Sequence record: PZ583738.1
Direction: 5' to 3' (one strand)
Source of the DNA: a phage
Length of the DNA stretch: 64,000 nucleotides
Each line of letters starts with the position of its first letter. Positions within the stretch are counted from its first letter, which is position 1. Positions 16,612 to 33,570 of the stretch are shown in pieces. Position numbers and translations under genes: made by a program. Under the pieces are notes generated by a model that made no database searches, was not told the origin of the DNA, and saw only the letters and a list, made by a program, of their open reading frames with translations.

Positions 16612-17483
16612 AATGGTACCCTATTTTTTCTTGGGGCTGGAGGTGCTGGGTCAACCGGTACAGGAATATCCTGCGAGTAGGTTTGAACAGATTCACCTTG
16701 CCAGTCTTCTTGGTCGACGTCTCGTGGAACGGCTTCCGAATCAACAGATTCGAAATTACCTTCCGGTGCAAGCTCTCTAGAATTTGCAAAGAAGTCAAGA
16801 TAGATAGTACGGATTTCCCCGGCTACTTCCTTAACCGGTGGATATAACCAACCGTTGACTTCGAACATAATGGACCATTCGAGTCTACGACGAGTCATTG
16901 CATCACCTTCAATTTGCTCATCCATAGCAATGGACTGGAGCACGATTCTTATATCACGTTCGAATGTAATTTCATTCGTGTAAAGTTCAGTGATGGTTGT
17001 ATTAAAATGTGGCTGGAAGTAAGGCATGATTTGTTCGATAATCTGGAACATATCATCTTGATGCCTTGTATATATTCCAAGCTCGAAAATCATTTTGACC
17101 GGCACAGGAGAATATTGAGATATCTGCTTGCGAGGGTCGTTATTAGCAAATCGCGCTTGTGTGTGATTCTGGAGAGCCGTTTTATATTGCCCGTTATACA
17201 TCAAGTCAACCATATGTAGGTTCATACGGGGCAATACGGTCTCGATTTTAGCCTTCTGAGCAGCACGTTCTTGTGGTGTCATGTCAGGAGTAGGTGTATT
17301 CTGAATAGCGGTCCATTTTCCAAGCTGCATCATGAATTTTTCTTTTGAAGCATAAGAAATAGGGACCTTAATATATTTAAGTCCAGTGTCTTCTCTGGTT
17401 CTGGCCACTTGTACATGGGAAAATAAATCGCCCATTAAAACGATATAGCGACGCAGAGACGAATTATAAAAATGCCCAAACAA
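16608..17483 (-). CDS. 15: tail sheath stabilizer / tail completion protein gp15
   Basis: 291 aa in gene 15 position. Confidence 0.8.
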
Positions 17484-17526
17484 AGTAACCTCCAGGCGCC
17501 CAGTTCGGGCGCATTAATAAATGTAT

Positions 17527-18315
17527 TTATTCATCAAAGAAACTATCGTCAAAGCTATCCTGTTTTGCCTTCGGAGGAGCCTCAAGTCCACGACCATTCT
17601 GCACAAAATATGGTTTAACATATTCAGCTGCTTCTGTGTTAATCTCATCAGATTCTGCATAAGGGATATCGCTGATATCTGTAAGGCCATCAATATTGTG
17701 GATTGGTTGTAAATCGAGCTCGCTGAATTCTGAAATATTAATACCTTCATTCCGTTGCAATTCAGGTTTAAGTTCTTCTCCGGAGTAAATGTATTTGCTC
17801 GCGGTGATTTTACGAATGGCGTTTTGACCTACCTGATAGAATGGGTCGTAAGGTTGCACCCATGTAATTTCGAACAGGCTGTTATCAAGAGGGAAATAAA
17901 TCAAATCCCCTGCAATAGGTTCGGTTCCGTTGCATTGATGTTTAAACAGATTAGGGTTAATCGATATTGTGATTTCATCATTCACAGTCATACCGAATTT
18001 ACTAAAGATAGAACCATCCCCCTGATAAGCATCGAACGTATCCAGATAGCCAGCAAATTTCCATGCTTTATCAAATTTACTCTGGAGGTCTTCACCGAAT
18101 AACAAATCCGGTTTAACGAATTGTCTTGGGATATAATAGAGAGACATTCCGCGCATCTGAATACTTTCAGCAACAATAGCATCAGCTAAAGTCTGGGTAT
18201 TTTCATGATGCATAAAGTTTACATATTGGTTGAGTATCTCTGACGAGTTTGTATTGTCATACCCGGTCCCGTCTTCAAGCCGGGCGAATAAGCTTGCATC
18301 ATAAGAATTACGCAT
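17527..18315 (-). CDS. 14: neck protein gp14
   Basis: 262 aa in gene 14 position. Confidence 0.8.
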
Positions 18316-18943
18316 AATTCCATAATTTCCATTTTTCGGCTGTACTTTTACATCTGTAAATGACCGCAGCCGGAGTTATTGAATAATATTCTGCACATTT
18401 TCTTCCGGTACAAAATTCTAGGTCGCCAGTAATAATTTTACGTGCCGCCGGATTTTTATCATCAGAAAAATCAGGATGTCGGTCCTTAAAATCAATCCAC
18501 ATTCGCGCCGTTGACTCTTTACGACGTTTTAATCCTTCTTCGGACCATTCTCTTTGTTTTGCGGCTTCCGACATTCGTTTTCTTGATTCAGCTGTTCTCT
18601 TTTTACCAAAAGCAGGAGAATCTTCTGGACGACTATAACCTTCTGGACCACCTCCCCCTGTTGGATGTAAATTTGCACAATTATCAAAACTTTCTAAAAG
18701 TTCACTAACTAGTAAAGCTTCGGCTTCCTTTAATAGAGCAGGTGATTCAAAAGGTTTAGACCAGGTAATATCGACTAAACATTTTCTTCCATATTTTTGT
18801 TTAGCTCGTTTAACAATAGTACCCGACCCAAAATAACTATCCGCTTTAAAATCTTCATATGGCGAATGACGTTTACCGCCATACACCATTACCCCACCAG
18901 ATGTTTCAAATGTCGACACATAAAGTCTATAATAAGTAGCCAT
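18308..18943 (-). CDS. GIY-YIG-like homing endonuclease (Seg-like) inserted between genes 13 and 14
   Basis: 211 aa; N-terminal YRLYV...MVYGGKRH (GIY...YIG-like) and shared module [16 protein letters not shown] paralogous to ORF 32603-33280; basic C-terminal half. Confidence 0.6.
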
Positions 18944-19881
18944 TAGCCCACCAATATAGGAGTCGGTGCATCCAGCAGGTCAAGTTCTTCACGAAGACGT
19001 TCTTTTTCCATACGAGCTTCTTCAATTAAACGAACACCATCAACTGTGACGCCACCTGGCATCATCATTCCCTGGTGTTTAGCTAATACGTTGCCATTAA
19101 CTTCCTTAACGAGCGCCGTGGCATAGTCTTTCACCCAACGGTTGTTGTATGCACCATCTTGAAGTCCAAGGTCCTCACCTGCTCTCATGCCGCTTATTCT
19201 GCGCGCCGGGTTATCCCACTGTGCACCAGCATTCCATGGATTATCACAATCGGCCGAAGCAAAACCATAGCCAGCTGTATTGCCTACCATTGAATCCACA
19301 CCGTTATATGATTTGGTATAAACTTCAATTACAATCACATCTCCCTGACGGAAGTTGCCCATAATTTTAAGTTGTTCAGTATCGTCATTATACCAGTAAT
19401 CTGGCAGCGGAACCATCAGGTCTTGCATCATTGAACGGTATTGCATAAGCTGTGTAAAATAACCAAGGTCTGCACCAAAAGCATTTGGTCCAAAGCTGTT
19501 ACATGAGCTACCCATTCCACCGTTAATCCCAGCAAGTCCCAGAACAAAATCTGTGAACCACGGATATGTGGCTTGCCCGTCCATCGAAGTTAATGAACCG
19601 ACGTTAGTACGAATAATCTGCGTTACTGCAAAAATATTACGGCCTTTTAAATCGAAAACACCATCGCGGAATTTCTGCTGTGAAACTTCATCATGGCCAA
19701 TATAAAAAGCCTGATAACCTTTGTTATAACCATTATAGTGATATTCGCCATATAATTCTAATGCGCGCTGGATGCAATCATAAACCTGTTCGGTCGTAAC
19801 TTCGATATTCGTGATTGGCGCACCAAGACGACGAAGGATTGCATCTTTTAATTGTTTCGGGTTGTATGATTCAGTTGCCAT
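18943..19881 (-). CDS. 13: neck protein gp13
   Basis: 312 aa in gene 13 position. Confidence 0.8.
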
Positions 19882-19899
19882 ATGTTTTCCTCTTTACTG

Positions 19900-19907
19900 T
19901 ATTTATA
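19900..19907 (-). promoter_or_regulatory. late promoter TATAAATA upstream of gene 13
   Basis: Exact motif about 20 nt upstream of gene 13 start. Confidence 0.5.
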
Positions 19908-19908
19908 C

Positions 19909-19931
19909 GAAAAAAGGGCCGAAGCCCTTTT
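19909..19931 (-). terminator. terminator between wac and gene 13
   Basis: gggccgaagccc hairpin with flanking A/T runs. Confidence 0.5.
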
Positions 19932-19932
19932 A

Positions 19933-21564
19933 TTATGGTGCTGGATTTAATGTCACAAATGTTGACAAAAGAACCCATGCATTATCAACTAGAACATACG
20001 GGAGGCCATCGGCCACAGGAGCGACAGGAGGCCTTTTGGCGAGCTCTGTTTCTAAGGCTGATACTTTACCTTCTAAAGTAGTTATCTTCGTCTCGGCCGC
20101 ATCCAGGCGACCAGGAAGCGGAGTTACTGTACCTTCAAGAGTTGTCACACGAGTAGTTAATGGTGCGATTTTTGCAGTATCGAGTTTAATTGCATCAATC
20201 TCGGTTTTAGCATCGATAATTTCAGCCCAGGTTCCTTGCTTACGTCCATATAGCTTATTATCCAGTGGTGCATCGTTCAGCTTGGACGCCATCAGCATAT
20301 CCAAGTTAATTACAACCGGAAGAACACCACGTTCAGCCACAGTAGCACCGTTAGGGTTTGTACCATTCATCTGACTAGTTAAAGTCAAAATAGAACCTTT
20401 CATACCAGTGTTATTTGTACCAATTTCAGCTTGTACATCCTGGAGACCTGATGCAGTTTCGTTAGCCAGCGTAGTGGTTGCATTCAACTTATACGTGATA
20501 GTGTTTGGCTCTGGAGATTGCTCTGTACCGATTCTCTGAGAAAGCCATGCAGTGGTACCACGCAAACCGGAACTTGAATCCTGGCCAACAACAACCTGTA
20601 ATCCATTGACATCCGCTCGTAAAGCACTGATTCGACCATTAATTGTCAATGGCTCCAGTGCTGTTCCAATATCAGCTTCAACCTTAGTGAGTCTTGGTTT
20701 GATATTCGCAATATCTGTTTCATTGACCGAAACACGCCCACCAAGATTTTCAACGCGGGTTGTAATTGCAATCCCTGTACCAAAACCAATAGCTTCTTGA
20801 ATGTTGGCAATATCTTCGTCAATTTCGACTGCTTTACCATCAAGAGTATTCAGTCTAACAAATACAGCCGGTTTACCTATTGCTAAAGTAGACTCACCTA
20901 ATTCTTCGCGAATTTTAATTACTTTTACGTTAAGAGAACCAACATCAGAATCATGGTAATTGTCCTCAAGAGTCTTAATACGAACTCCATGAGCAACAAT
21001 AGCAGAACTGTTATCGATGATGCGGCGTTTCATGCCTTTTGATGGATTGCCGATAACCTGGAGACCATTTATATCTTGGTCAACATACTGACCTAATTCA
21101 TTTTTAATCCATACGAGGTCATTACGAACTGTGCGATAATATGAATCGGTTAACGGGTCATAAGCACCAACATCTTCTTTTAACGTTTTAAGACCTTCGG
21201 ATGTTTCACTTGACAGCAATTCGGTATTAAATTGACGTTCATCAAGGTCAAGAATATCCGTACGGTTTTTTTCAATTTGTTTAACAACTTCTGTGTTAGT
21301 TGTTATATCCAAAGCTTCCTGAATATTATTGACGTTATCAATAATTTCGTTGATTTTTTCTTTAGATGCATTTGAGTTGTCGTCGAGTGTATCTACGTTT
21401 GTTTGAACGCCAACTGCAGCGGCGTTCAAATTACCATCATAACCATATTTGGTACTGGCCGCAGTCATACAATCGCCGTTTTGTATCCAACGAATTCTCT
21501 GTTGACCTTCGTCTGGAATACCGATGCTATACGGCAGCTCTTTGAGACTGAGTTTATTAATCAT
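19933..21564 (-). CDS. wac: fibritin (whisker/neck fibre) with C-terminal foldon
   Basis: N-terminus LKELPYSIGIPDEGQQRIRWIQNG resembles recalled T4 Wac; heptad-rich middle; C-terminal PYVLVDNAWVLLSTFV resembles the T4 foldon; start placed at internal ATG (M18 of track ORF) just downstream of gene 12. Confidence 0.85.
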   Translation of the reverse strand: MINKLSLKELPYSIGIPDEGQQRIRWIQNGDCMTAASTKYGYDGNLNAAAVGVQTNVDTLDDNSNASKEKINEIIDNVNNIQEALDITTNTEVVKQIEKNRTDILDLDERQFNTELLSSETSEGLKTLKEDVGAYDPLTDSYYRTVRNDLVWIKNELGQYVDQDINGLQVIGNPSKGMKRRIIDNSSAIVAHGVRIKTLEDNYHDSDVGSLNVKVIKIREELGESTLAIGKPAVFVRLNTLDGKAVEIDEDIANIQEAIGFGTGIAITTRVENLGGRVSVNETDIANIKPRLTKVEADIGTALEPLTINGRISALRADVNGLQVVVGQDSSSGLRGTTAWLSQRIGTEQSPEPNTITYKLNATTTLANETASGLQDVQAEIGTNNTGMKGSILTLTSQMNGTNPNGATVAERGVLPVVINLDMLMASKLNDAPLDNKLYGRKQGTWAEIIDAKTEIDAIKLDTAKIAPLTTRVTTLEGTVTPLPGRLDAAETKITTLEGKVSALETELAKRPPVAPVADGLPYVLVDNAWVLLSTFVTLNPAP

Positions 21565-21572
21565 TTTGGTCC

Positions 21573-23123
21573 TTAGTAATGAATTTTGATAATATAGTTT
21601 AAAGACATATTCCATGGGCGAGTTTCATAACCAATAAGACCTTCACGGTTTAATGTACCTAAAGCATCTCTGCCGCCACCGAGTTCAAATCCATCGTTAG
21701 TAAAATATGAAGCGTTATCCCAGTCTGCATATTTTCTTGTGCCCAGATAACCCTGATAAACTGATGCACCAAATGGAGCTTCGTTGCGTTGGTATTCACC
21801 CCAGCCACCCGCGTGTTTATGATATGACATTTGCTGAGCTTGTACACCACCGACCCATGAACCATCACAACCAACACCCAAACGGTCTTTGCCATAACCA
21901 TCTTGACCGCGGTTATTCAGAATATGTCCACCGGTACCAGCACCGCGAACAAACAAACCGCGCATATCAGGAATACCGACGTTAGTCCAATCGCCACCAA
22001 AACGAGTTCCAACAGTATTTCGATAGTCAGGGAATTGGTCACCATTAACGGTGCCACCATGACACATAATCCAACCAGGAGGAGCACTATCACCCGCGAA
22101 CATCATCACTGTTCCGACAGGAACGCGTTCGGAAGCATAACGCTGTGTGGAAAGTAATTGGCCACCCATATGGGCCGTATTAGAATCAAAATTGCCGGTG
22201 GAAATATAATCTAAAGAAAGACTTCCATTAATTCGTTGACCGCCGCGAGTGTTGATTACATCGGCGTTCCAAGCCAGCGCCCCGGCACCGTCACCACCAG
22301 GAGCAACCCCAGCCTGAGTAGTTAATCTAACAACACCGCGAATATCGGTTGTAGCACCACGACCATTAAGAGTTGCTCCGGTTACCGCAACACCATCAGC
22401 ACTGTTATTAATCTCTGACTGAGTACCAAGACGAATAATCCCCGCGCGGTCTTGTGTTGCTGTACGAGCATTTAAACCAGCCGGAGAAATTGCTACACCG
22501 TCACCCAGAGTTCCTGCTTGCACTTCAGCATTTGTAGCAATTCGTACTAAACCAGAAACAGTTTGTGTGGCAGTTGAATAAGTCGGAAGAGCTGCTGTTG
22601 CTTTGCCAATTGCCAGAGCAACTTTCAACGGAGACATAGCGGTTGTATCATCTGTACCAGCTAAAGCTGCATCCTCGGTACTAATACGAAGAACACCCAA
22701 ATTATTTTCGGTACCGACACGAACAGCAAAAACATCATCAATTGTTGCTTTTAATGAAGACGGAACAATAGCCGCATCGGTTAATGTCCCGGCAATTGCT
22801 TCAGCATTGGTTGCATAACGGGTAATACCTACATAAGTTTCTGTGGCTTGCGTAGGGATGTCTAAACGAGCTTTTAAGGTCGCTGGAGTAACTGCAGAGT
22901 CTGGACTAATACCATCAATAACTTCTTGTGTGGTGGCTAGTCTGATGAGTCCTGCAGTCGTTTCGGAAGAGGCTGGGATATATCCATCTAACGCAATTTT
23001 ATTAAGAGACCCTAAAGCCTCTTGTACGTTGGTAACAGTCGACGGGAAAGCTGTCCCCGTCGGGTCGAACGTTTTATATTCAGATTTATCGCTAATGTGT
23101 TTTAGCGTGTTAGTCGTTGTCAT
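21573..23123 (-). CDS. 12: short tail fibre gp12
   Basis: 516 aa, repetitive Gly/Thr/Ala-rich fibre sequence, position between genes 11 and wac. Confidence 0.85.
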   Translation of the reverse strand: MTTTNTLKHISDKSEYKTFDPTGTAFPSTVTNVQEALGSLNKIALDGYIPASSETTAGLIRLATTQEVIDGISPDSAVTPATLKARLDIPTQATETYVGITRYATNAEAIAGTLTDAAIVPSSLKATIDDVFAVRVGTENNLGVLRISTEDAALAGTDDTTAMSPLKVALAIGKATAALPTYSTATQTVSGLVRIATNAEVQAGTLGDGVAISPAGLNARTATQDRAGIIRLGTQSEINNSADGVAVTGATLNGRGATTDIRGVVRLTTQAGVAPGGDGAGALAWNADVINTRGGQRINGSLSLDYISTGNFDSNTAHMGGQLLSTQRYASERVPVGTVMMFAGDSAPPGWIMCHGGTVNGDQFPDYRNTVGTRFGGDWTNVGIPDMRGLFVRGAGTGGHILNNRGQDGYGKDRLGVGCDGSWVGGVQAQQMSYHKHAGGWGEYQRNEAPFGASVYQGYLGTRKYADWDNASYFTNDGFELGGGRDALGTLNREGLIGYETRPWNMSLNYIIKIHY

Positions 23124-23788
23124 TACGATACTCGCTTATAATGGTAAAGTGAAATTGCGCCATTTGCTGTGCCACCTGATAATGTCTGGGTTGAAGTTCC
23201 AAGATATTCCCAGGAACCATAACCACCGCGCGGTTGCTGTGTAATAATCTGGCTAAGCGTACAACCATATTGAGCGAAAGGTGCAAAATTATGGTTTTGG
23301 TAGTCGTTATATGTAATATTTAATATAGACTGGTCCACACTATCAATTGCAGAGCTTGACACAATTAAACTATCAGCAACAGCCGTCAGCAAAGCATCGT
23401 TAACCTTGGAAGCAACCAATACAGCCGAATCCCCGACAATAACCTCAACCGGAATACCAAAAATGAAAAACAAAACAGTATCACCGACCCCAGCGCCAGA
23501 AATAGACCCGGTGAATTTAATTTTATCCGACTGACTAATTGCAGCAGGAGAAAGGTTATTTGTATTAGTAATTACACTGCCAACCGGAAGCTCACATCGA
23601 AACGCAATATCATCTATTGCGCTCTGAACTGTTGGATAAAAAATACCCTCGGTTGTTTGTGTTGCGGATGGGCCGCCGATTGCTCGTTGACCCATGACAG
23701 CCGTAATATTTTTTGATGTATTTTGAAATTCTAAGTAACTAGCAAGGCGGGAAATTACTCCAGCCTTTTTATTCGTTAATGTTTTCAT
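23123..23788 (-). CDS. 11: baseplate wedge protein gp11
   Basis: 221 aa in gene 11 position. Confidence 0.8.
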   Translation of the reverse strand: MKTLTNKKAGVISRLASYLEFQNTSKNITAVMGQRAIGGPSATQTTEGIFYPTVQSAIDDIAFRCELPVGSVITNTNNLSPAAISQSDKIKFTGSISGAGVGDTVLFFIFGIPVEVIVGDSAVLVASKVNDALLTAVADSLIVSSSAIDSVDQSILNITYNDYQNHNFAPFAQYGCTLSQIITQQPRGGYGSWEYLGTSTQTLSGGTANGAISLYHYKRVS

Positions 23789-25599
23789 TAAGCAATCCTT
23801 ACCCAGCGATGAGCAATCAAATATGGAGGCATTGTATAAACCGGTTGAGCTTGAGGGTCTTGCGCCTGATTAATAGTGGCTTTGTCTTCTCTGTATTTGG
23901 TATAGGCTGGACCTTGTGCATCTGGGTCTACCTGACAACCGCCGACAACAATCGGACCATTATCATCAACAACCAAAAATTTCTCATCGGTTTCAAGTTT
24001 AGGTACGTTTATATCTTTAATATGAACTTCAACACTACCACCTGTGCCACCCGCCGTCGCTTGTGGGTTACCACCAGAATCCAGGTCATTATTGTTTGTA
24101 TGGAAGTTTGAGGCAGGGTCGTCCGACCAGGCAACAATTACACGTTCTTTCAAACGTTTCCATGAACCAAACCCCATATAAGTAACCGGGTTATTCGGGT
24201 TAACCGTATTTTCGTAAATTGTACCAACCGGATAGAATAATTCAAAGATAGCGCCAACAGAAGATGGAACAACTTCCTGAAGACCGACTGGTTCAACGTT
24301 TGGTGCAAACGGATTATCAAAATCTGTAATACGTACACGACCGGTTAAGCTCAATGTATTTCCCTGAGAAACATAAAGAGTGTCAGTCTCATCACGGATT
24401 TCATCCATGGTCATAGTTGTGCCGATATCGTTATTGTACCAAATGACCGACAGAATATCACCATCTTCAAATTCACGATAAATGCTAATACCTTCGATGC
24501 GGTTGTCATCATCAAATTGCAGCAAATAATCCTGGGTTGATTCAGACCAACTGCCACCATTTGCGCTACATTCTGCCGCAGTGGAACCTTGCGCACCTTC
24601 GCAATAAAATACTGGAGTTCCTGCAGTCCCGGCTTGGTGTTGTAAAATACTGTTAATGAATACCTGACATGCATTTGGGTTAATTGGGCTACCCGGAGAG
24701 ATACCAAGTTCTTCAATTGTAAAGGTGTGTTTGGATGTCAAATCTGTAACAATCAAAGAACCATTAATTGTTGTTTCTTTGGTCCTGTCCTGACTACGAA
24801 CAAGTACATCACGACGATTATACGAACTACGCCATTGAGCAATACCATCATTAAATGTTCGGATGATAACAGTATCACCTTCAGCACATGGCATTTTCAG
24901 ACGGATGCTTTTACCATCAAGCGCAACGATTTCACCAGGGTTTGCACCAGGGGAACCAAATTCAGCATTCACCGGGTCGAAAATATCATCTTTACCATAA
25001 AACAGGTCGTTACCACGATGTTTGACTTCTAAGTTCGATACGCTATACGGAATAGCACCAAACACATTGATAAAGTCAGTTTGTCCTTCGGTAGCAATAA
25101 ACTGTTGGGATGCAACTGTAGCAACGTCGTTATTTGAAATTTTATCGACTTGTTTATTATCGATATATTCCCAACGACCTGGTGAACAATATACAAGTTC
25201 AAGGTCAGCTAAGTTGCGTTTAATTTCTACTGGATTTGGTGAGCCTTTAATCGTATCCCCGACTGCAGGAACAATTGTCACCGGGTTGATTTGCCAGGTA
25301 GCAAACACGTCACGCAAGCGAATTACATAATTGTATTCTTGAGTTGTTCCTTTCGGGAGGACGACTCGAACAGCACCGGCTGATGTATCGATGGTATAGC
25401 TTCGACCCATAACAGCAGACAACTCGGTGCCTTCTTGTGTAGTCCAAGTTTTCCATGCACCAGCCGCATGAGGATTTTCACCGTCACCCAGCTGATAATA
25501 AAGGTCGTCAAAGTTATTGTTTATTTTTTGACCGCCGAGACGAAGGTAATCACCAGTACCATCATCAACCATATTGCCAATTTTTAAATTCTGTTTCAT
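23788..25599 (-). CDS. 10: baseplate wedge protein gp10
   Basis: 603 aa in gene 10 position. Confidence 0.85.
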   Translation of the reverse strand: MKQNLKIGNMVDDGTGDYLRLGGQKINNNFDDLYYQLGDGENPHAAGAWKTWTTQEGTELSAVMGRSYTIDTSAGAVRVVLPKGTTQEYNYVIRLRDVFATWQINPVTIVPAVGDTIKGSPNPVEIKRNLADLELVYCSPGRWEYIDNKQVDKISNNDVATVASQQFIATEGQTDFINVFGAIPYSVSNLEVKHRGNDLFYGKDDIFDPVNAEFGSPGANPGEIVALDGKSIRLKMPCAEGDTVIIRTFNDGIAQWRSSYNRRDVLVRSQDRTKETTINGSLIVTDLTSKHTFTIEELGISPGSPINPNACQVFINSILQHQAGTAGTPVFYCEGAQGSTAAECSANGGSWSESTQDYLLQFDDDNRIEGISIYREFEDGDILSVIWYNNDIGTTMTMDEIRDETDTLYVSQGNTLSLTGRVRITDFDNPFAPNVEPVGLQEVVPSSVGAIFELFYPVGTIYENTVNPNNPVTYMGFGSWKRLKERVIVAWSDDPASNFHTNNNDLDSGGNPQATAGGTGGSVEVHIKDINVPKLETDEKFLVVDDNGPIVVGGCQVDPDAQGPAYTKYREDKATINQAQDPQAQPVYTMPPYLIAHRWVRIA

Positions 25600-26468
25600 T
25601 ATACCGGTACTCCGATTGTTTGGGCGGAAATTACTTTAATAGCGAGCTTCATGGCAGTGGGTGAGCTTATAGCCGCCTGAATGATATCCTGGTTATCAAT
25701 TCTAAAATCGATGGCATATATCTCATCTTCTTCATTAGTTTGTCCACGTCTGATTACAGCGTATTCTGTGCTATATACCTTGCGGTCCTTAAGGTCGATG
25801 TAAAGTAATATTTCTGATGCTTTGTATTTAGTTTCGTCTGTTGAAATAGCTGTCAGCATCAATTTGATAGTTTTATAATCTGCGCGGAAAGCAAGTGGAA
25901 TATCACGAACAACCGAGCTCATATTGTATGTTTTGTCGAGCAATACAGATTGGTTGCCAAACATACTTTCAATTTTGTAGTCCCAGGTCCCTACGCCGTT
26001 AGCATCGTCAATACACCACAATGTAATTTTTGTATAAGGCTGAGTAAATTTCATTTTGTTCGTTGCAGCAGTCAGGAATGAATCCGTGCCTTGTAGTTCA
26101 ACTTCCAGAGGCAACGAGGTGGATAATGAACCATTGGAGTTAATAAAGATAACACCTTCGCCTGCTTTACCTTTTGCAATTCTTGCAGTGATAACACCTT
26201 CGGCAGTATTGACATCTCGCATAGAACCGAGAGCAACAGTCGAGTTCCATTCGATGATATTTGTGGCTTTTTGATAGTAGCCAGTCGCATGAAGTACCTG
26301 GGAGTTTTCTCCATTGTTCACAGAGTACAGACGCTGGTCGCCGAATGTATTATACAAACTGTCTAAATCCACGTTCAGTTTACGACCGCCTTCATATAGA
26401 ATATCACCGGTGCTGGCGTTACCAATCTCGCCGATGTCTACTAATAATTTTGGGGTTTGATTAATCAT
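25599..26468 (-). CDS. 9: baseplate wedge protein gp9 (long tail fibre socket)
   Basis: 289 aa in gene 9 position. Confidence 0.85.
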   Translation of the reverse strand: MINQTPKLLVDIGEIGNASTGDILYEGGRKLNVDLDSLYNTFGDQRLYSVNNGENSQVLHATGYYQKATNIIEWNSTVALGSMRDVNTAEGVITARIAKGKAGEGVIFINSNGSLSTSLPLEVELQGTDSFLTAATNKMKFTQPYTKITLWCIDDANGVGTWDYKIESMFGNQSVLLDKTYNMSSVVRDIPLAFRADYKTIKLMLTAISTDETKYKASEILLYIDLKDRKVYSTEYAVIRRGQTNEEDEIYAIDFRIDNQDIIQAAISSPTAMKLAIKVISAQTIGVPV

Positions 26469-26494
26469 AGGTAAGCCTCGTTATTGATATAGCT

Positions 26495-26502
26495 ATATTT
26501 AT
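26495..26502 (-). promoter_or_regulatory. late promoter TATAAATA upstream of gene 9
   Basis: Exact motif about 27 nt upstream of gene 9 start. Confidence 0.5.
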
Positions 26503-26506
26503 AGAA

Positions 26507-26531
26507 TAAAAAAGGGACCCGAAGGTCCCTT
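26507..26531 (-). terminator. terminator between gene 8 and gene 9
   Basis: aagggacccgaaggtccctt hairpin with A-run. Confidence 0.5.
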
Positions 26532-26532
26532 G

Positions 26533-27537
26533 TTAGAATTCAAAAATAATGTTAACTTCTTCTGTCTGGTCCATTGCACGAATAATCGGTGGGCGGTTTT
26601 CCATATAAATCATTTCCCCGGAATGACGGTCCAAATCAATTGCATCGTAGTATTCTTTGATTGCTTTGATATTTGGGTCATTAGGATGTACTTTAACTTC
26701 AAGTGGGTTGGATATAATCGACAGCTGGCGGAAGCCTTTGTTCCCTGGAAGACTGAACTCTGGGAAATAAATGGAATCCATAAATGCTTTAAATCTGATT
26801 GTATATCCTTTGATTCTGTATATTAAACCGAAATCATCTTGTTGCCAGCTGATATTGTCTTTGTAACCCCAACGTGATGGGTCTTCTTCAATTTCTTCAG
26901 GCCATGGAACAACAATATATTCGTTAGTACAACGGTTGATGGATACATCAGGTGGAATCTCATACAAATATTCCCAGAGATAACCATCGCCCATATCGAC
27001 TCGTCCTTCTGTATCACCAGTCCCAGCTGGAGCTCTCGTCGAGTTATATTCAGCAGTCCATTTACCACCGAGTTTTAAACACTCTTCTTTATTGATAATA
27101 GAATAAATGGAGCAAGTCCCAACATCAGGAACGTCTACACAACGATAAACCATCCAACCTTTACCAACATCAGTTCGGTTATACGGAGCACTGTTAGCTA
27201 CAACAATTTCCCCTACCTGGAAGTTAAGCGGATTGGGATATCTGATATCGCCCCAGTCTTTACGTGGGACAACACAATCAAGCATTGACTTATAAACTTT
27301 GACTGCACCCATCATATTTGTCCAAGTATCTTCAACACCTTGTGCTGTGTCAACCGGATAAGGAGGGGCGAACCCCGGGTCATTCTCATTCGAAGCCCAG
27401 GGTTCAGCACGACCGAACGTTACATACATCGTATTCTGGTCGGGCTCATTACCAATCATTTTATAAAAGTTATACATTTTTTCAGTTCGAAATTTCGAGG
27501 TAATTATCGAACGATAAACTACAGATGAATTATTCAT
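26533..27537 (-). CDS. 8: baseplate wedge protein gp8
   Basis: 334 aa, same as T4 gp8, in gene 8 position. Confidence 0.85.
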   Translation of the reverse strand: MNNSSVVYRSIITSKFRTEKMYNFYKMIGNEPDQNTMYVTFGRAEPWASNENDPGFAPPYPVDTAQGVEDTWTNMMGAVKVYKSMLDCVVPRKDWGDIRYPNPLNFQVGEIVVANSAPYNRTDVGKGWMVYRCVDVPDVGTCSIYSIINKEECLKLGGKWTAEYNSTRAPAGTGDTEGRVDMGDGYLWEYLYEIPPDVSINRCTNEYIVVPWPEEIEEDPSRWGYKDNISWQQDDFGLIYRIKGYTIRFKAFMDSIYFPEFSLPGNKGFRQLSIISNPLEVKVHPNDPNIKAIKEYYDAIDLDRHSGEMIYMENRPPIIRAMDQTEEVNIIFEF

Positions 27538-30500
27538 TTACCTTTACCTGTGATGGGTCTTTCGGGTCGCGTGGATTACCAATATCATCCTTAAGACGTT
27601 GATTAACCAAATTGCGCCAGTTCGCAAAAGTCACGGCAGACTGGTCAAACAATGGACTGTATTTTTTACGACGTTCAGACGGGAGAGTCCCATGAAAATC
27701 TGAAAAATCGTTTTCGGCATCATAATCTGCCGGTAATGGGAACGGTAAACCTGCGTTAGGAGCAATATTATATACTGCTTCGCCTGTAACAGCATTATGC
27801 TCAATGTTTCCATCGGCTCCAATAACTGCAATACGGTCACACCATTCTGACGGAATACCCGACGACCAACGATAGTTGTTCAGTTTATTGATAATGGTTT
27901 CTGTATGTTTTAATGACAGACCAGCATTAACAAACATTGTCAATAATGTAATTCCAACAAATCCAAATCCAACCGGATGAACAAATCGCAATACGTCATT
28001 ACGATAACGAGATGTCGGGAGACTTGATTTAATGGTCATTACATAGTAAGAACGATTTCGGTTGATATAATCGATGTTGTTGCTAAGCAATTCTTTCCCG
28101 CGAACGCCCTGAACAATCATGCCTCCAAAGGAAGTCCTTTCGGATTTAATTTCTTGCCCAACAATAAAGCGACCAAGCAAGTTATGAATCGTGATACGCC
28201 ATCTCAATTTACCCTGTTTGTAGTCACGCTCCATATAGGTAACGTTACTGCGGCCGGTTGGTGTGTAAATTGTTTGCCCAACAATATCTTCGCTGATATT
28301 ATCAGATTCGACAATTATGTCATACTCGGTTCCGTTCTTGGATTCAATATCGATTTCAACGTCTTCATTATATAACAATTTGAATAAAAACTTATAGGAT
28401 GCTTCAGTCCCCTTGGTTGCCCAAAAATCAGACTGTCTTGCTTCAAAGAAACGAACTACTTCGTCACGCTTGGTCTTTGACAAATATATGTTTCTTTTGT
28501 ACATTTCACTCCAAAGGTATTCCCATGCATCTTCCTCGCGTGGGTACTGGTTGCGAATCAAGTTCAAAAGGTTGTTATAATATGTGCCAGAACCATCACT
28601 GATAAACTGTAAATAATATTCACAGAATTTTTCGAAGTTGCTATCCTGGAGCAAATAACTATCCGGAACCATCTTTGTTAAAAGAGGACGCAAGTCCGGG
28701 TCTTTCTCTTGTTCATCATTATCCGGGGTCCATGGAATATCATGTTCCTGGTTCTGTAATTCTGCAGTGAACATAACTTCTTTCGGTTTCCAGATTAATC
28801 TAACTTCATCACGCATACGATAGTCGAATTCAAAATAACCAATAAGCTCACCAGTATTTTTATGTAACATAATACCCGAGGCATATTTTTTAAAGCCATT
28901 GAATTCGATGTTAGGAGAAGTAACTTTCACTTGACCTTTATTCCAGTATTCGTGCACAATACGTTCAGGGGATGAACCACCAAAGGTATCGATAATCTTT
29001 TGATACAGCATGTCATTATATACAACCAGAGCTCTGTCTGATGTGGTAATCCAACAACGAGTATCATCACGGCGAGACCAGTTAAAGAACGGTTCAGCGT
29101 AATATGACATACGTCCAGGTTTAAACTCTTCCCAACCTGAATCTTTATTCGACCTAAAACTCATCATCAAATAATGCTTGTCATGTATCCATTGTTCATC
29201 ATACACATATTTGACTGCTTCGTTAACTTCTTCAGGATACTTAGCAGGGAGTTCGGTATCTGGCTCAACGGAATAACGGAAGTTACTTGAACTGATAAAA
29301 AGTTCAATTCCATCAGTTGACATGCTTGTGTAACCATGTTCAATACGGCGACGTTCATCCTCTGTATTACCAAAAACTCGTGTCCATGTATCGGTATCGG
29401 TATTTAATTTATAAACGCCCTTTGATAATGAATCGACAACGTTTTCAGGCTTAGTCGGGTCTTGGCGTTCTTCCTTTACTTCACCCGTGATTAATGCAAA
29501 CACTTCACCGTCAATTGAATCCATCTTGTAACAAACAGCTTTTGGGTTGCCGCTTATTGTGCTATATCCAGCTTCAAATAATTTTTCACCGAATGTTGGA
29601 GAGTTAGGGTCATTATCAATTGGAGCATCAGAAGATTTAGCTTTGTATACACGGTCGCGGCCAGCAACGTAAATCATGGAATCGGTCGTAGTAATTGCTT
29701 CGGCAATTGTTGAGATATATGCCGGGAGTCTTGCGTATGTGCCAAATATTTCAATATCAAATCCGAGATTGAAATCCGAACCAATTTTTGCAAATGTTAT
29801 ATCCTGAGAACTGAATCGAACATCATCAGCAGACCATCTTATGTCACTTGATTTACGACCGTAAAAAATTCGGTCATATCCGAGTACATAAGTTGTCGTA
29901 TCTGATTGATAATAAATTGTGCGCGATACTGGGTTACCGATACGGTCATTAAACAATTTTACATAATACCAGTTCTGCCCTTTATCATTGGAGACTTTGA
30001 CAGTTGTCTGGAATCGTTCAAACAAATACAGTACGCCACCAAGTTCAGCAATCATTGTACGATTAACATCATTACACACCGGCTGAATACTACCCTGAAT
30101 TTCGTGATATTGGTCTTCTTTTAATACATAGTTTGAAATTGAAGACAAATGAGAATAAGCAGGAGTAAAGCTAAAATCTTCAGACATCAGCGATGCCATA
30201 ATTGCATCATTATTAAAGTTGATATAAGCCTGGTTATTGTTTGTGAATTTTTCTTCGATGAATTTATTTGTTAATGTAAACTCACGCATGTGTTCAAATG
30301 TGTATGCGTTAGTTGCAAAGGTTTCAAATTCTTCGGTATAAACCCAATCAGATTGTTCAAAACCCATTGCTGCAACAGCAACACGCATTTTGTAAAATGA
30401 TACTGGACGAATAAAATCTTGTTCGAACCATTCATTGTCTGGAGTATAACCTAAATTCCTCCATAACAGATTTTCTTCTGGAATAGCAACACCATTTTCT

Positions 30501-30628
30501 TTTGTCGGAGCAATCTCAACAAAATAATAAAAGTTGGCGCCAACATTATCCCATTTTATGCTAACCTGGTTAGCAGATAGTTTATCAATCCGTAAGCTGG
30601 TTACATAAGGGGCTTTAACACTCATCAT
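27530..30628 (-). CDS. 7: baseplate wedge protein gp7
   Basis: Track ORF of 1063 aa; start moved to ATGATG after RBS aaggaaa (MMSVKAPYVTSLRIDKLSANQ... matches recalled T4 gp7 N-terminus). Confidence 0.85.
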   Translation of the reverse strand: MMSVKAPYVTSLRIDKLSANQVSIKWDNVGANFYYFVEIAPTKENGVAIPEENLLWRNLGYTPDNEWFEQDFIRPVSFYKMRVAVAAMGFEQSDWVYTEEFETFATNAYTFEHMREFTLTNKFIEEKFTNNNQAYINFNNDAIMASLMSEDFSFTPAYSHLSSISNYVLKEDQYHEIQGSIQPVCNDVNRTMIAELGGVLYLFERFQTTVKVSNDKGQNWYYVKLFNDRIGNPVSRTIYYQSDTTTYVLGYDRIFYGRKSSDIRWSADDVRFSSQDITFAKIGSDFNLGFDIEIFGTYARLPAYISTIAEAITTTDSMIYVAGRDRVYKAKSSDAPIDNDPNSPTFGEKLFEAGYSTISGNPKAVCYKMDSIDGEVFALITGEVKEERQDPTKPENVVDSLSKGVYKLNTDTDTWTRVFGNTEDERRRIEHGYTSMSTDGIELFISSSNFRYSVEPDTELPAKYPEEVNEAVKYVYDEQWIHDKHYLMMSFRSNKDSGWEEFKPGRMSYYAEPFFNWSRRDDTRCWITTSDRALVVYNDMLYQKIIDTFGGSSPERIVHEYWNKGQVKVTSPNIEFNGFKKYASGIMLHKNTGELIGYFEFDYRMRDEVRLIWKPKEVMFTAELQNQEHDIPWTPDNDEQEKDPDLRPLLTKMVPDSYLLQDSNFEKFCEYYLQFISDGSGTYYNNLLNLIRNQYPREEDAWEYLWSEMYKRNIYLSKTKRDEVVRFFEARQSDFWATKGTEASYKFLFKLLYNEDVEIDIESKNGTEYDIIVESDNISEDIVGQTIYTPTGRSNVTYMERDYKQGKLRWRITIHNLLGRFIVGQEIKSERTSFGGMIVQGVRGKELLSNNIDYINRNRSYYVMTIKSSLPTSRYRNDVLRFVHPVGFGFVGITLLTMFVNAGLSLKHTETIINKLNNYRWSSGIPSEWCDRIAVIGADGNIEHNAVTGEAVYNIAPNAGLPFPLPADYDAENDFSDFHGTLPSERRKKYSPLFDQSAVTFANWRNLVNQRLKDDIGNPRDPKDPSQVKVNE

Positions 30629-30656
30629 GGTTTCCTTAAAAAGCCTCCGAAGAGGC

Positions 30657-32603
30657 TTATAGTGTAATTGGTTCAAGGTCAATCTTTGTATATTGCGGAC
30701 GAAGGTCATTCTCAAATACAATCAGTGAACCATCTTGCGTGTATATATTATCTTGGTTAGGACTTGCATAAAGTTCGATTGATTGAACTTCAAAGCGGTC
30801 GGAGGTCAATCCAATCGCAGCGATATCCCAAAAAATATAATCAGAGTAATAGTCAATTTCGCCAATTGTGTAATAAACTGTTTGGTCAGCCGGAGCTTCC
30901 ATTTTATTAAAGTCATCTTGCAGGTAAGGCTGGATGTTTACATTTTCAATAACATCACCCGGACGGAATGGACCAATTACCATTTTACCATCACCACGAG
31001 AATCTTTATCAGTTGCAACAATGCGAACGTTATAGGCTTCACCTGTGGTCGGAACAAATTCAAATTCACTTGATTCGACTGAACGGTTGCCATACTGGTT
31101 ATAGTATTTAATGCCGGATTCTGGAGTCTTAAAGAAGTTCAGGACTTCACGCACCATCGAAATGGTTGCAGACGAACCAAGAATACTATGGTCGGTATTA
31201 TCCACATATGTAAGCATTTTTGACTTAGCAAAACTTCTGTTAAAGATTTCAACTTCATCGATATAATAACGGTCAATCTGATTAATGATTTGTGCTTGCA
31301 ACCATTGTTCAGATTCTTGTAATTTGTTCAGCGCATAAGATACTTTGATATTATGTTTAAGGAACAAATAATCCGGAGAAATAACCGATGGTGTAATTGT
31401 TGATACGTTGAACTCGCTAAGGTAGTTCTGGATGTCCTCACGTTGCACTGCGGTGAGATACAAGCCCGATTTAGGCTTAACTGATATAAACGCATACCCA
31501 GGTTTATTTGCGTCTGTAAACGTCTGTACGGCTTGCACGATTGAGCCAAATCTTTCGGATACGAAGGTATCATAATCCGTCCCGGTGACAGCACGCATCT
31601 GTGCTTCACGTTTAACAACAGCCAGTTCGCGGATTCGTTCGATATCTTCCGGGTCACCACCACCATCGGCACCGACATAATCAGGGTCGTTGTTGTAGTT
31701 TTCGGTAATTTTATCCACTGTAATATAAGACAAAGTATCAGCATAACTAAAATCAACAGCGCCGTTTGCATCTGCCCCGGAAGTACGAAGATACTCAATA
31801 ACAATTGTTGAATCTTGCACAGGTTTAAGACCGCCAATATAGTTGGCTTCCATAACGCCACCGGCCACAGATTTGGTGGATTCACCTTCACCGAAGAAAA
31901 ATTCGGTATAGCCATCGATTGTTTCACGCATATAAAATATGGTGGAAGTCGAACCAGCATGAACCATTGATTTGTTCGTCCAGTCATCCCACTCAACACC
32001 ATTCACATATAACTTAACTTCTTTGCGGTCAATATCCGGGTCGCGGATAAGAATAGGTTGTTTCGGGTCATATAAAAGTTCCGTACGAATAATACGACCC
32101 TGTGCCAGAGATACAATCGGAAGGTATTGGTTGTTAATATCTTTAACCGCGATAACGTTTTCCGTGGTAACAAAAACATAAGGGTCAGCTGATGTATCAC
32201 GAGCATAAGCCAGGAATTTAGTTCCTCGTGGGATTTCAATATTCGATGGTTGCAGAGCATGAGAACATGTCAACATAACCGAAGTCTTTGCAGCCGAGCG
32301 AGAAGATGGAAGATAACCATTATCCTGTGCAGCCTGAACAACTGAAGACCTTAAGTTTGCAGTTCCGATAAATGATTCGTAAACCGCCGTGTTAGCAAAC
32401 TGCTGCATATACAATGTATTATATGCAAGCATGTCAATCAGGATATTCATTCGCGAACCTACGAAATCATAATCCTTAAATTCATCCTGGCTTGATAACC
32501 AGTCGATGATGTTCTTTTTAATTTCTTCAAACGTAGCTCCCACAAATACTTTTGGGATAGCGTTAACGGTTCTTGTTAATTGGTAATTCGTAGGAGTAGC
32601 CAT
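30657..32603 (-). CDS. 6: baseplate wedge protein gp6
   Basis: 648 aa in gene 6 position. Confidence 0.85.
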   Translation of the reverse strand: MATPTNYQLTRTVNAIPKVFVGATFEEIKKNIIDWLSSQDEFKDYDFVGSRMNILIDMLAYNTLYMQQFANTAVYESFIGTANLRSSVVQAAQDNGYLPSSRSAAKTSVMLTCSHALQPSNIEIPRGTKFLAYARDTSADPYVFVTTENVIAVKDINNQYLPIVSLAQGRIIRTELLYDPKQPILIRDPDIDRKEVKLYVNGVEWDDWTNKSMVHAGSTSTIFYMRETIDGYTEFFFGEGESTKSVAGGVMEANYIGGLKPVQDSTIVIEYLRTSGADANGAVDFSYADTLSYITVDKITENYNNDPDYVGADGGGDPEDIERIRELAVVKREAQMRAVTGTDYDTFVSERFGSIVQAVQTFTDANKPGYAFISVKPKSGLYLTAVQREDIQNYLSEFNVSTITPSVISPDYLFLKHNIKVSYALNKLQESEQWLQAQIINQIDRYYIDEVEIFNRSFAKSKMLTYVDNTDHSILGSSATISMVREVLNFFKTPESGIKYYNQYGNRSVESSEFEFVPTTGEAYNVRIVATDKDSRGDGKMVIGPFRPGDVIENVNIQPYLQDDFNKMEAPADQTVYYTIGEIDYYSDYIFWDIAAIGLTSDRFEVQSIELYASPNQDNIYTQDGSLIVFENDLRPQYTKIDLEPITL

Positions 32604-33280
32604 TATTCTGAATCCTGTTTAAATTGTTTTATCATTTTGTCATAAGCCGTATTTGGAAATCCGTTTTCAATGGCCAATCGTGTCATTTTTCTCCAACCTG
32701 GCTTATCATTTTCTTTCCATAATTTGAATAAAATATCATATGATTGCCAAATGGGGTGTTTTCTATTATTAAGTTTGCATAGGTCAATAACAGATTGAGG
32801 TCTTGGTCTTTTATATAAAGGATGCTCTTCTCCTCTAACAAAAACCCTCGGTTTTGGAGGTAGCTTAGGTTTTCTCCTTTTGGCCATAGCTTTTTCAAAA
32901 TTTTCAATATGTTCTTTACTTCTAGGTGGCTTTGGCCTACCCTTCATTTTGTCTGATGTTTGCTTTTTTGAAGATTCCTTATGCTTTCTTCCTCGCATAC
33001 TTCCTTTGCCACCCAAATCTATATTATAATATCTATCATCATAAATTATAGATTCGTCTACTAAAAATTCTTCGTAGTCGTAAGCTTCATCTTCAGTATC
33101 AAAAAATTTTATTATTTTTGTCTCAAACGAATCCTTTCCATATTTTTTATAAGCCTTTTTGATAAGCTCCCCTGTGCCGTAATATCCATCAAACATATCG
33201 TCAGTAGAATGTTTGCCTATATACTTTTTACCATTTTCTAGGTTTGTAGTTACATATACAAAATTAAATTCTTTGTTCAT
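32603..33280 (-). CDS. GIY-YIG homing endonuclease (Seg-like) inserted between genes 5.4 and 6
   Basis: 225 aa; N-terminal [19 protein letters not shown] (GIY...YIG), then highly basic K/R/P-rich DNA-binding-like tail. Confidence 0.8.
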
Positions 33281-33570
33281 TTTATGAACACCTTCCCTGA
33301 AGCTTGTGCGACAGTATCACCACATGAAATCGGGTCTGCCATTTGAACAGCTTTCTTACCGGTAACAAATACTTTTGATGTGCGCGGTTGTGTTACTCCA
33401 CCGTGAGTTTCATATGGTTTTTTAATTTCGGTATGCTCGGTAATAGGGTCTCCGGCAACTAACACCGGAATTCCCCCGGTGAATACTTTACCTTGAGTTG
33501 CATTAATTACAGTCGGTGGCCATGCTTCGTGGCCTGCTGTAACACATTGATTGAAACTTAATCCAGCCAT
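33277..33570 (-). CDS. 5.4: PAAR-repeat spike tip protein gp5.4
   Basis: 97 aa (same as T4 gp5.4), Gly/Val-rich PAAR-like sequence, immediately after gene 5 cluster. Confidence 0.8.

Follow-up and report, generated by a model that had tools for sequence, protein, structure and literature searches.

Record PZ583738.1 provides a 64,000-nucleotide (nt) stretch of phage DNA, here called the window, whose positions are counted from its first letter. The source phage belongs to the T4-like genus Gaprivervirus (VR7/SP18/VR26/RZ/DK-13), and the window flanks are 93-98% identical to these phages. Two open reading frames (ORFs) lie between essential tail and neck genes, in late structural operons whose gene order otherwise follows that of T4. 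ORF1 (18308-18943, 211 amino acids) is located between gp13 (18943-19881) and gp14 (17527-18315), and ORF2 (32603-33280, 225 amino acids) between gp5.4 (33277-33570) and gp6 (30657-32603). A preliminary description of the window had proposed two paralogous GIY-YIG-like endonuclease genes at these coordinates and junctions. Both were found there, and their strand, which the description had left unstated, is the minus strand, as for the structural genes. T4 has no gene at either site; its genes 13 and 14 abut, as do genes 5.4 and 6.

ORF1 and ORF2 are very probably two intact, free-standing homing endonuclease genes of the Seg type, each with its own DNA-binding module and its own site. The hallmarks of Seg genes are present: both are free-standing ORFs between conserved genes, their flanks are collinear, and their distribution in close relatives is patchy. 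Moreover, the differences that are fixed between carriers and non-carriers cluster directly beside each insert. This type of element is already known, and the genes have effectively been annotated before. Homing endonucleases are annotated at exactly the same sites in VR26, SP18, RZ, P8, and CLB_P2, and the VR26 copies of the two genes are 99.1% and 97.8% identical at the amino-acid level. Literature searches found no paper on these particular genes, and a tblastn search of both proteins against the window detected no third paralogue. The main value of the analysis is correct annotation, and the pair adds two more cases of the well-described T4-type "intronless homing" elements.

A shared nuclease domain

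The proposed paralogy had been based on a GIY-YIG-like N-terminus and the module Y(Y/F)G(T/S)G.(L/I)(I/V)K.A.KYG, followed by different basic tails. The module is present in both proteins, and the paralogy held in pairwise alignment, where BLASTP found 27% identity over 202 amino acids (E 5e-8). Family alignments were assembled from database homologues of ORF1 (10 sequences) and ORF2 (14 sequences). Profile-profile comparison of the two families with hhalign gave a probability of 99.0% and an E-value of 3.1e-18 over 131 columns. In PHROG, too, the two proteins fall into one family, phrog_314 "homing endonuclease" (E 8.6e-30 for ORF1 and 1.9e-42 for ORF2). The profile match is limited to the N-terminal ~140 residues, which comprise the nuclease domain and a basic NUMOD3-type linker, and ORF1 and ORF2 are judged to be true paralogues in these parts. 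Because the match stops there and the C-termini differ, the paralogues have a common nuclease and different targeting modules. Such a layout fits the "beads on a string" modularity known for these endonucleases (PMC10448857).

Two small phage proteins rich in lysine could in principle look alike by chance or through their composition, as the identity is just 27% and both tails are basic and of low complexity. However, the hhalign match falls within the structured N-terminal 140 residues, both proteins belong to one PHROG family, and their models have the same top structural match. The BLASTP, PHROG, hhalign, and structural matches already refute a chance origin, to which we assign next to no likelihood.

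The GIY-YIG catalytic domain covers amino acids 1 to ~97 of ORF1 (18653-18943, minus strand) and 1 to ~95 of ORF2 (32996-33280, minus strand). ORF2 carries the canonical motif FVYV...KKYIGKHS that had been described, and it passes the Pfam cut-offs for GIY-YIG (PF01541, 24.3 bits; cut-off 22.6) and SegE_GIY-YIG (PF19835, 27.6 bits; cut-off 25). The ORF1 motif is more degenerate, as had also been described, and reads RLYV...VYGGKRHS, giving the variant RLY...YGG. Neither family varies at the positions equivalent to the I-TevI residues GIY Tyr, YIG Tyr, Glu75, and Asn90, which are Y8, Y21, E75, and N91 in ORF1 and Y9, Y20, E70, and N86 in ORF2. The I-TevI Arg27 position is aligned with an invariant His (H26 in ORF1 and H24 in ORF2), which is adjoined by R25 in ORF1, and the Arg27 role may fall to the His or to an Arg.

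Predicted models of both proteins have the GIY-YIG alpha/beta fold, composed of a three-stranded sheet flanked by helices, and the best structural match of each is the I-TevI catalytic domain. The ORF2 family profile finds this domain in the PDB with a marginal E-value of 0.013. The comparison of the ORF1 family with the I-TevI catalytic sequence alone (hhalign) was not significant (E 0.19), though E75 was aligned with E75. Single-sequence searches of both proteins against PDB sequences returned nothing relevant, so the link of both ORFs to I-TevI came only through profiles and predicted structures. The NCBIfam model TIGR01453 (group I intron endonuclease) gave only sub-threshold scores of 52.2 and 15.4 bits against a cut-off of 56. 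As for GIY-YIG profiles, ORF2 matches directly, and ORF1 is connected only transitively, through the hhalign match to the ORF2 family.

Linkers and DNA-binding domains

Both proteins join a GIY-YIG domain at the N-terminus to a NUMOD-type linker and a C-terminal DNA-binding domain. The NUMOD3-like motif of ORF1 spans amino acids 109-125 (18569-18619, minus strand). Its Pfam NUMOD3 score of 17.4 bits is under the cut-off of 20.4, and NUMOD3 is matched by all ten members of the ORF1 family. The hhalign match between the ORF1 and ORF2 families extends through the linker.

The tails are indeed different. The C-terminus of ORF1 (18311-18502, minus strand) is an I-TevI-type helix-turn-helix (HTH) DNA-binding domain by its profile matches. 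The ORF1 family profile matches PDB entry 1i3j, the I-TevI DNA-binding domain, with an E-value of 3.5e-5, and Pfam PF20987 (I-TevI_DNA-bd) is found in eight of the ten family members (best E 1.6e-10). The C-terminus of ORF2 (32606-32833, minus strand) is a SegA-like helical domain that resembles winged-helix/HTH DNA-binding folds; in the predicted model, the likeness is to winged-helix and three-helix DNA-binding modules.

Intactness of ORF1

Two results weigh against ORF1 being a homing endonuclease. Pfam GIY-YIG matches neither ORF1 nor any of the ten members of its family, and within Gaprivervirus the gene is no more similar than its flanks (92% versus 96-99%, in RZ), which makes the evidence for its mobility weaker. 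Despite the absent Pfam match, ORF1 probably belongs to the GIY-YIG superfamily because its catalytic positions are invariant, hhalign links it to the ORF2 family, and its predicted model matches I-TevI.

The preliminary description had suggested that ORF1 may be decaying. In the extreme case, it would be a degenerating remnant that has lost its nuclease and is kept only as the ribosome-binding site (RBS) and start of the essential gene 14. The missing Pfam match and a YIG motif that reads YGG agree with this, and the gene 14 start is indeed located within the end of ORF1, which would lead to selection against deletion. However, keeping that start would constrain merely the last ~30 nt, and the whole of ORF1 has a ratio of nonsynonymous to synonymous substitution rates (dN/dS) of 0.040-0.050, with dS up to 0.40, against the orthologues of RZ, SP18, P8, and VR26. 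For comparison, dN/dS is 0.066 for ORF2 and 0.004-0.16 for gp13 and gp14. Members of the ORF1 family that are only 52-60% identical have 62 invariant columns over both domains. The frame is full length in all carriers, and the predicted GIY-YIG fold keeps the Tyr, Tyr, Glu, and Asn positions. A remnant is thus highly unlikely. Because of the low dN/dS and the 62 invariant columns across both domains, the decay reading was rejected, and ORF1 appears to be intact.

ORF1 at the 13/14 junction

ORF1 is present in nine records and absent from about 24 records of close relatives (at least 90% identity). The orthologues are 96-99% identical and are annotated as homing endonuclease in VR26, RZ, SP18, and P8. 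A junction alignment with the endonuclease-less phage DK-13 shows how the gene sits between its neighbors. Endonuclease-less phages and T4 read TAATGGCTACTTATGA at the junction, and their gp14 begins MATYD. In carriers, the ancestral gene 14 ATG and four codons open ORF1 (MATY-YRLYV...). The captured start, which holds the ancestral gp14 ATG and opening four codons (MATY), lies at 18932-18943 (minus strand) and overlaps the gp13 stop (TAATG). At the other end, ORF1 and gene 14 overlap by 8 nt (18308-18315, minus strand), and the new gene 14 ATG (18313-18315) is inside the last ORF1 codons. The gp14 of the window begins MRNSYDAS, replacing MATYDSR. ORF1 is a clean case in which a homing endonuclease gene has captured the translation start of an essential gene and put another in its place. 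Retention of an "embedded promoter" is known for segG and segA, and retention through the start capture by ORF1 would be a translational analogue.

The endonuclease is fused to the ancestral gp14 start (MATY) in Gaprivervirus and Tequatrovirus. The endonuclease of Tequatrovirus F2 opens with MATYYRLY, and the F2 gp14 with MSTYNSN. The Klebsiella phages and the Krischvirus Phi1 have an endonuclease with its own start and Shine-Dalgarno sequence, and its 3' end still overlaps the gp14 start. The overlap is 8 nt in Phi1 and Prick1, as in the window, and 14 nt in F2. The 13/14-junction lineage is thereby found in at least four genera (Gaprivervirus, Tequatrovirus F2, the Klebsiella phages, and Krischvirus Phi1). 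The preliminary description had also offered that ORF1 may be retargeted. This is true only trivially, in that neither the DNA-binding domain nor the site is shared by the paralogues. Because at least four genera have the ORF1 lineage at the 13/14 junction, this junction is a long-standing home and not a new target.

Directly downstream of the insert, the 5' part of gene 14 contains a variant tract linked to ORF1 (18226-18298, 73 nt, minus strand). It holds 10 positions at which five carriers and five non-carriers have no common allele. The identity of the window to endonuclease-less relatives falls from ~98% to ~87% only in 18201-18307. Within the tract, the gp14 Pro29 codon is changed from CCT to CAA (Gln). 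Codon 29 of gp14 is Lys in the carriers F2 and Prick1 and is unchanged in Phi1. Two upstream junction haplotypes occur among the ORF1 carriers, as expected for conversion tracts of variable length. Pattern scans of IMG/VR for the carrier and non-carrier gene 14 alleles found only VR26, VR25, and VR20 again and yielded no independent genomes for the linkage.

From these sequence comparisons, we infer that the target or immunity determinant of ORF1 would lie in the gene 14 start region, in the codon 22-30 region, or in both. The break in the endonuclease-less allele is predicted near gene 14 codons 27-31 (the counterpart of window 18226-18250) or at the ATGGCTACTTATGA start region.

We tentatively propose, with less than even confidence, that the ORF1 lineage may be more than a passenger. 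It would have taken the RBS, ATG, and first four codons of gene 14 and would supply a replacement RBS, ATG, and N-terminus from its own conserved C-terminal codons (KW..WNY), with a cleavage or immunity determinant ~85 bp inside gene 14, near the Pro29 codon. Because ORF1 supplies the gene 14 translation start, its simple deletion would be lethal. If this is true, the element forces a nonsynonymous change on a neck protein, in which the Pro29 codon became Gln or Lys in carriers of three genera.

The public annotation of the VR26 orthologue (KP007362.1; L001, 1309-1944) covers 1309-1890 and begins at an internal Met, giving 193 amino acids. This start was rejected, as the 18 upstream residues hold the invariant R6, L7, Y8, F12, S15, and G17, which form the first beta-strand with the "GIY" Tyr. 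The full 211-amino-acid frame, beginning MATYYRLYV, is intact in VR26.

ORF2 at the 5.4/6 junction

ORF2 overlaps both of its neighbors, with its start on the stop of gene 5.4 (ATGA) and its stop on the start of gp6 (TAATG). The insert takes the place of the 9-nt spacer between genes 5.4 and 6, and its last codons provide an AGGA 9 nt before the gene 6 start. ORF2 is shared only with VR26 and the Dhakavirus CLB_P2 (four records) and is absent from other close relatives.

Over its 678 nt, ORF2 is the same in VR26 and CLB_P2 (100% identity), and the flanks of the two phages are only 70-88% identical. CLB_P2 is in turn 98-100% identical to the endonuclease-less Dhakavirus dhabil outside of a ~60-nt stretch directly upstream of the insert. 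The identical copy amid such divergent flanks, together with the ~60-nt stretch, is the imprint of a recent move of ORF2 from genus to genus that was accompanied by a short co-conversion tract. The pair shows that such elements carry short flank tracts over genus boundaries, and it agrees with the view of nuclease genes as boundary markers of genetic exchange between phages (PMC10448857).

A variant tract linked to ORF2 is located at the 3' end of gene 5.4 (33286-33301, minus strand), where there are six fixed differences in the last ~25 nt of the gene. All three carriers have the six substitutions, and all of the endonuclease-less phages compared, from both genera, lack them. The tract changes the end of gp5.4 from ...ASSKVFIK to ...ASGKVFIK (Ser to Gly). 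It also gives rise to AAGGTG (33289-33294), a Shine-Dalgarno-like sequence 8 nt ahead of the ORF2 ATG. Because these carrier-only substitutions create AAGGTG before the ATG, the ORF2 mobile unit includes its own RBS, written into the end of gene 5.4. The break made by ORF2 is predicted across the 5.4/6 junction (...CATCAAAAGTCTTTATAAAATAGGAAATAAAATGGCT...).

Just upstream of the tract, at 33302-33310 in gene 5.4, the window reads GTCGCACAAGC, the Dhakavirus type that CLB_P2, dhabil, and JS98 have as well. At these positions, the sequence is GTGGCTCAAGC in VR26 and in the Gapriverviruses that lack the endonuclease. Slightly further upstream, CLB_P2 has the Gaprivervirus-type bases CCGATTTCATGT. 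These mosaic tracts suggest more than one transfer of ORF2 between the two genera, with traffic both ways.

The first 92 nt of gene 6 (32512-32603, minus strand) are 100% identical in every Gaprivervirus and Dhakavirus genome that was compared, whether ORF2 is present or not. Around this stretch, gene 6 is only 70-88% identical from one genus to the other, and within it the T4 sequence departs at many positions, synonymous ones included. The identical stretch may be a conversion tract homogenised by endonuclease traffic, a shared homology arm or target half-site, or the result of translational constraint.

The ORF2 start codon lies within a 7-bp hairpin, UGUUCAU-AAA-AUGAACA, at 33274-33290 (minus strand), which all three carriers have and the endonuclease-less allele lacks. 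The 71-nt fold is not significant (z -0.5), and the hairpin may mean nothing. Hairpins that occlude the start site occur in some T4 late genes and endonuclease genes, and the ORF2 hairpin recalls them.

Relationship to known Seg proteins and I-TevI

ORF2 is most readily compared with T4 SegA. The two align over their full length with 34% identity (E 3e-32), including the region of the C-terminal motif W..W..KPG...LAIE.GFPN..Y..M, and have the same domain architecture. Both are free-standing, comprise ~220 amino acids, and start close to the end of the upstream gene. Unlike SegA, which is located between uvsX and beta-gt, ORF2 occupies the 5.4/6 site in a late structural operon, so that the timing of the operon differs as well. 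ORF2 was considered as the SegA orthologue and rejected, given the different site and the identity of only 34%. It is a SegA-like paralogue, and the VR26 label "segA" is nominal.

T4 SegC is also a GIY-YIG Seg protein and shares the gene 5 to 6 interval with ORF2. Its identity is 31% with ORF2 (E 2e-24) and 30% with ORF1, in the latter over the N-terminal 126 amino acids (E 1e-8). Its site is given as 5.1/5.3 and also as between 5.1 and 5.4, whereas ORF2 is at 5.4/6 and ORF1 at 13/14. Orthology of ORF1 and SegC was rejected, as the site is another and the likeness (30%) covers only the nuclease domain in the N-terminal 126 amino acids. The "segC" labels in SP18 and Phi1 are nominal.

The closest counterparts of ORF1 are the endonucleases at the same 13/14 site in Phi1 ("SegC"), F2, MX01, phT4A, the Klebsiella T4-like phages, SP18, RZ, and VR26. 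They are built like ORF1, from a GIY-YIG domain, a NUMOD3 linker, and an I-TevI-type HTH, and their genes likewise overlap the gp14 start at the 3' end. The identity to ORF1 is 96-99% in Gaprivervirus, 59% in Tequatrovirus F2, 49% in the Klebsiella phages, and 31% in Phi1 (E 1e-19). To our knowledge, none of the 13/14-junction endonucleases has been characterised. The Pfam GIY-YIG model fails to pick up the lineage, to which public records wrongly give the label "SegC".

I-TevI, encoded in the T4 td intron, has the same nuclease-linker-HTH layout. Its catalytic domain tops the structural matches of both ORFs, and its DNA-binding domain is matched by the ORF1 C-terminus (1i3j and PF20987). The sequence similarity to the catalytic domain is marginal for the ORF2 family and not significant for the ORF1 family. 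Unlike I-TevI, neither ORF1 nor ORF2 lies within an intron. A zinc finger was detected in neither of them, and the Arg27 position is aligned with His.

Expression and proposed homing mechanism

The T4 seg genes are promoter-less cassettes in polycistronic messages that overlap upstream ORFs and undergo intronless homing with co-conversion (PMC2988022). segC, segF, and segG are read from host-gene transcripts by translational coupling or re-initiation (PMC2988022), and the layout of ORF1 and ORF2 matches theirs. After SegA, SegC, SegE, SegF, SegG, and I-TevI, a common model can be drawn for the expression, cleavage activity, and target positions of both ORFs. Each gene would be a promoter-less cassette that is transcribed by read-through from the late operon, with its translation coupled to the upstream gene through the TAATG or ATGA overlap. 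In a mixed infection, the enzyme would cut the endonuclease-less allele of a related phage near the 13/14 or 5.4/6 junction. The break would be repaired from the carrier genome, and the endonuclease gene would be copied in together with a short flanking stretch. The site of the carrier would be protected, as the insertion disrupts the target and the linked variant tract alters it.

One or both proteins may instead have been domesticated, giving the phage a benefit through competitor exclusion, I-TevI-like repression, or SegB-like local amplification or recombination. Purifying selection as strong as that on structural genes and the persistence of the ORF1 lineage at one site across genera are in keeping with this. 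Precedents are SegB, which amplifies anti-defence loci (PMC13096335), and I-TevI, which acts as a repressor (PMC10448857). However, each gene is missing from most close relatives, which argues against an important host function, and ORF2 has the classical footprint of a recent selfish transfer. Competition between phages by marker exclusion is homing's own mechanism and so presents no alternative to homing. Domestication is thus unlikely, and homing is the preferred explanation for both genes.

In keeping with promoter-less cassettes, a scan for the T4-type late promoter motif TATAAATA found no copy within the two endonuclease genes or directly upstream of them. The nearest upstream motif for ORF1 is at 19900-19907 (minus strand), before gene 13. 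A scan of 17400-20000 for sigma-70 promoters and terminators gave no more than the shuffled expectation. RNA structure at four translation-initiation regions gave z-scores of -0.5 to +0.7, which provide no evidence of structure.

Further observations in the window

There are 20 copies of TATAAATA in the window compared with 5.2 expected, on the minus strand in 503-26503 and on the plus strand in 36456-60801. Every copy is on the local coding strand, and most are before ORF starts, which fits a T4-type late transcription programme. On the minus strand, genes 53, 5, 5.1, and 5.4 have no exact TATAAATA upstream of them.

Beyond gene 13, the 3' part of the wac (fibritin) gene (19851-20500, minus strand) is 97-100% identical to DK-13, RZ, TH41, and P479 and 94% identical to P8. 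The same segment is only 72-74% identical to VR26, SP18, VR20, and VR7, whereas the adjoining gene 13 is 93-99% identical to all of these phages, marking a sharp mosaic boundary in the fibritin gene.

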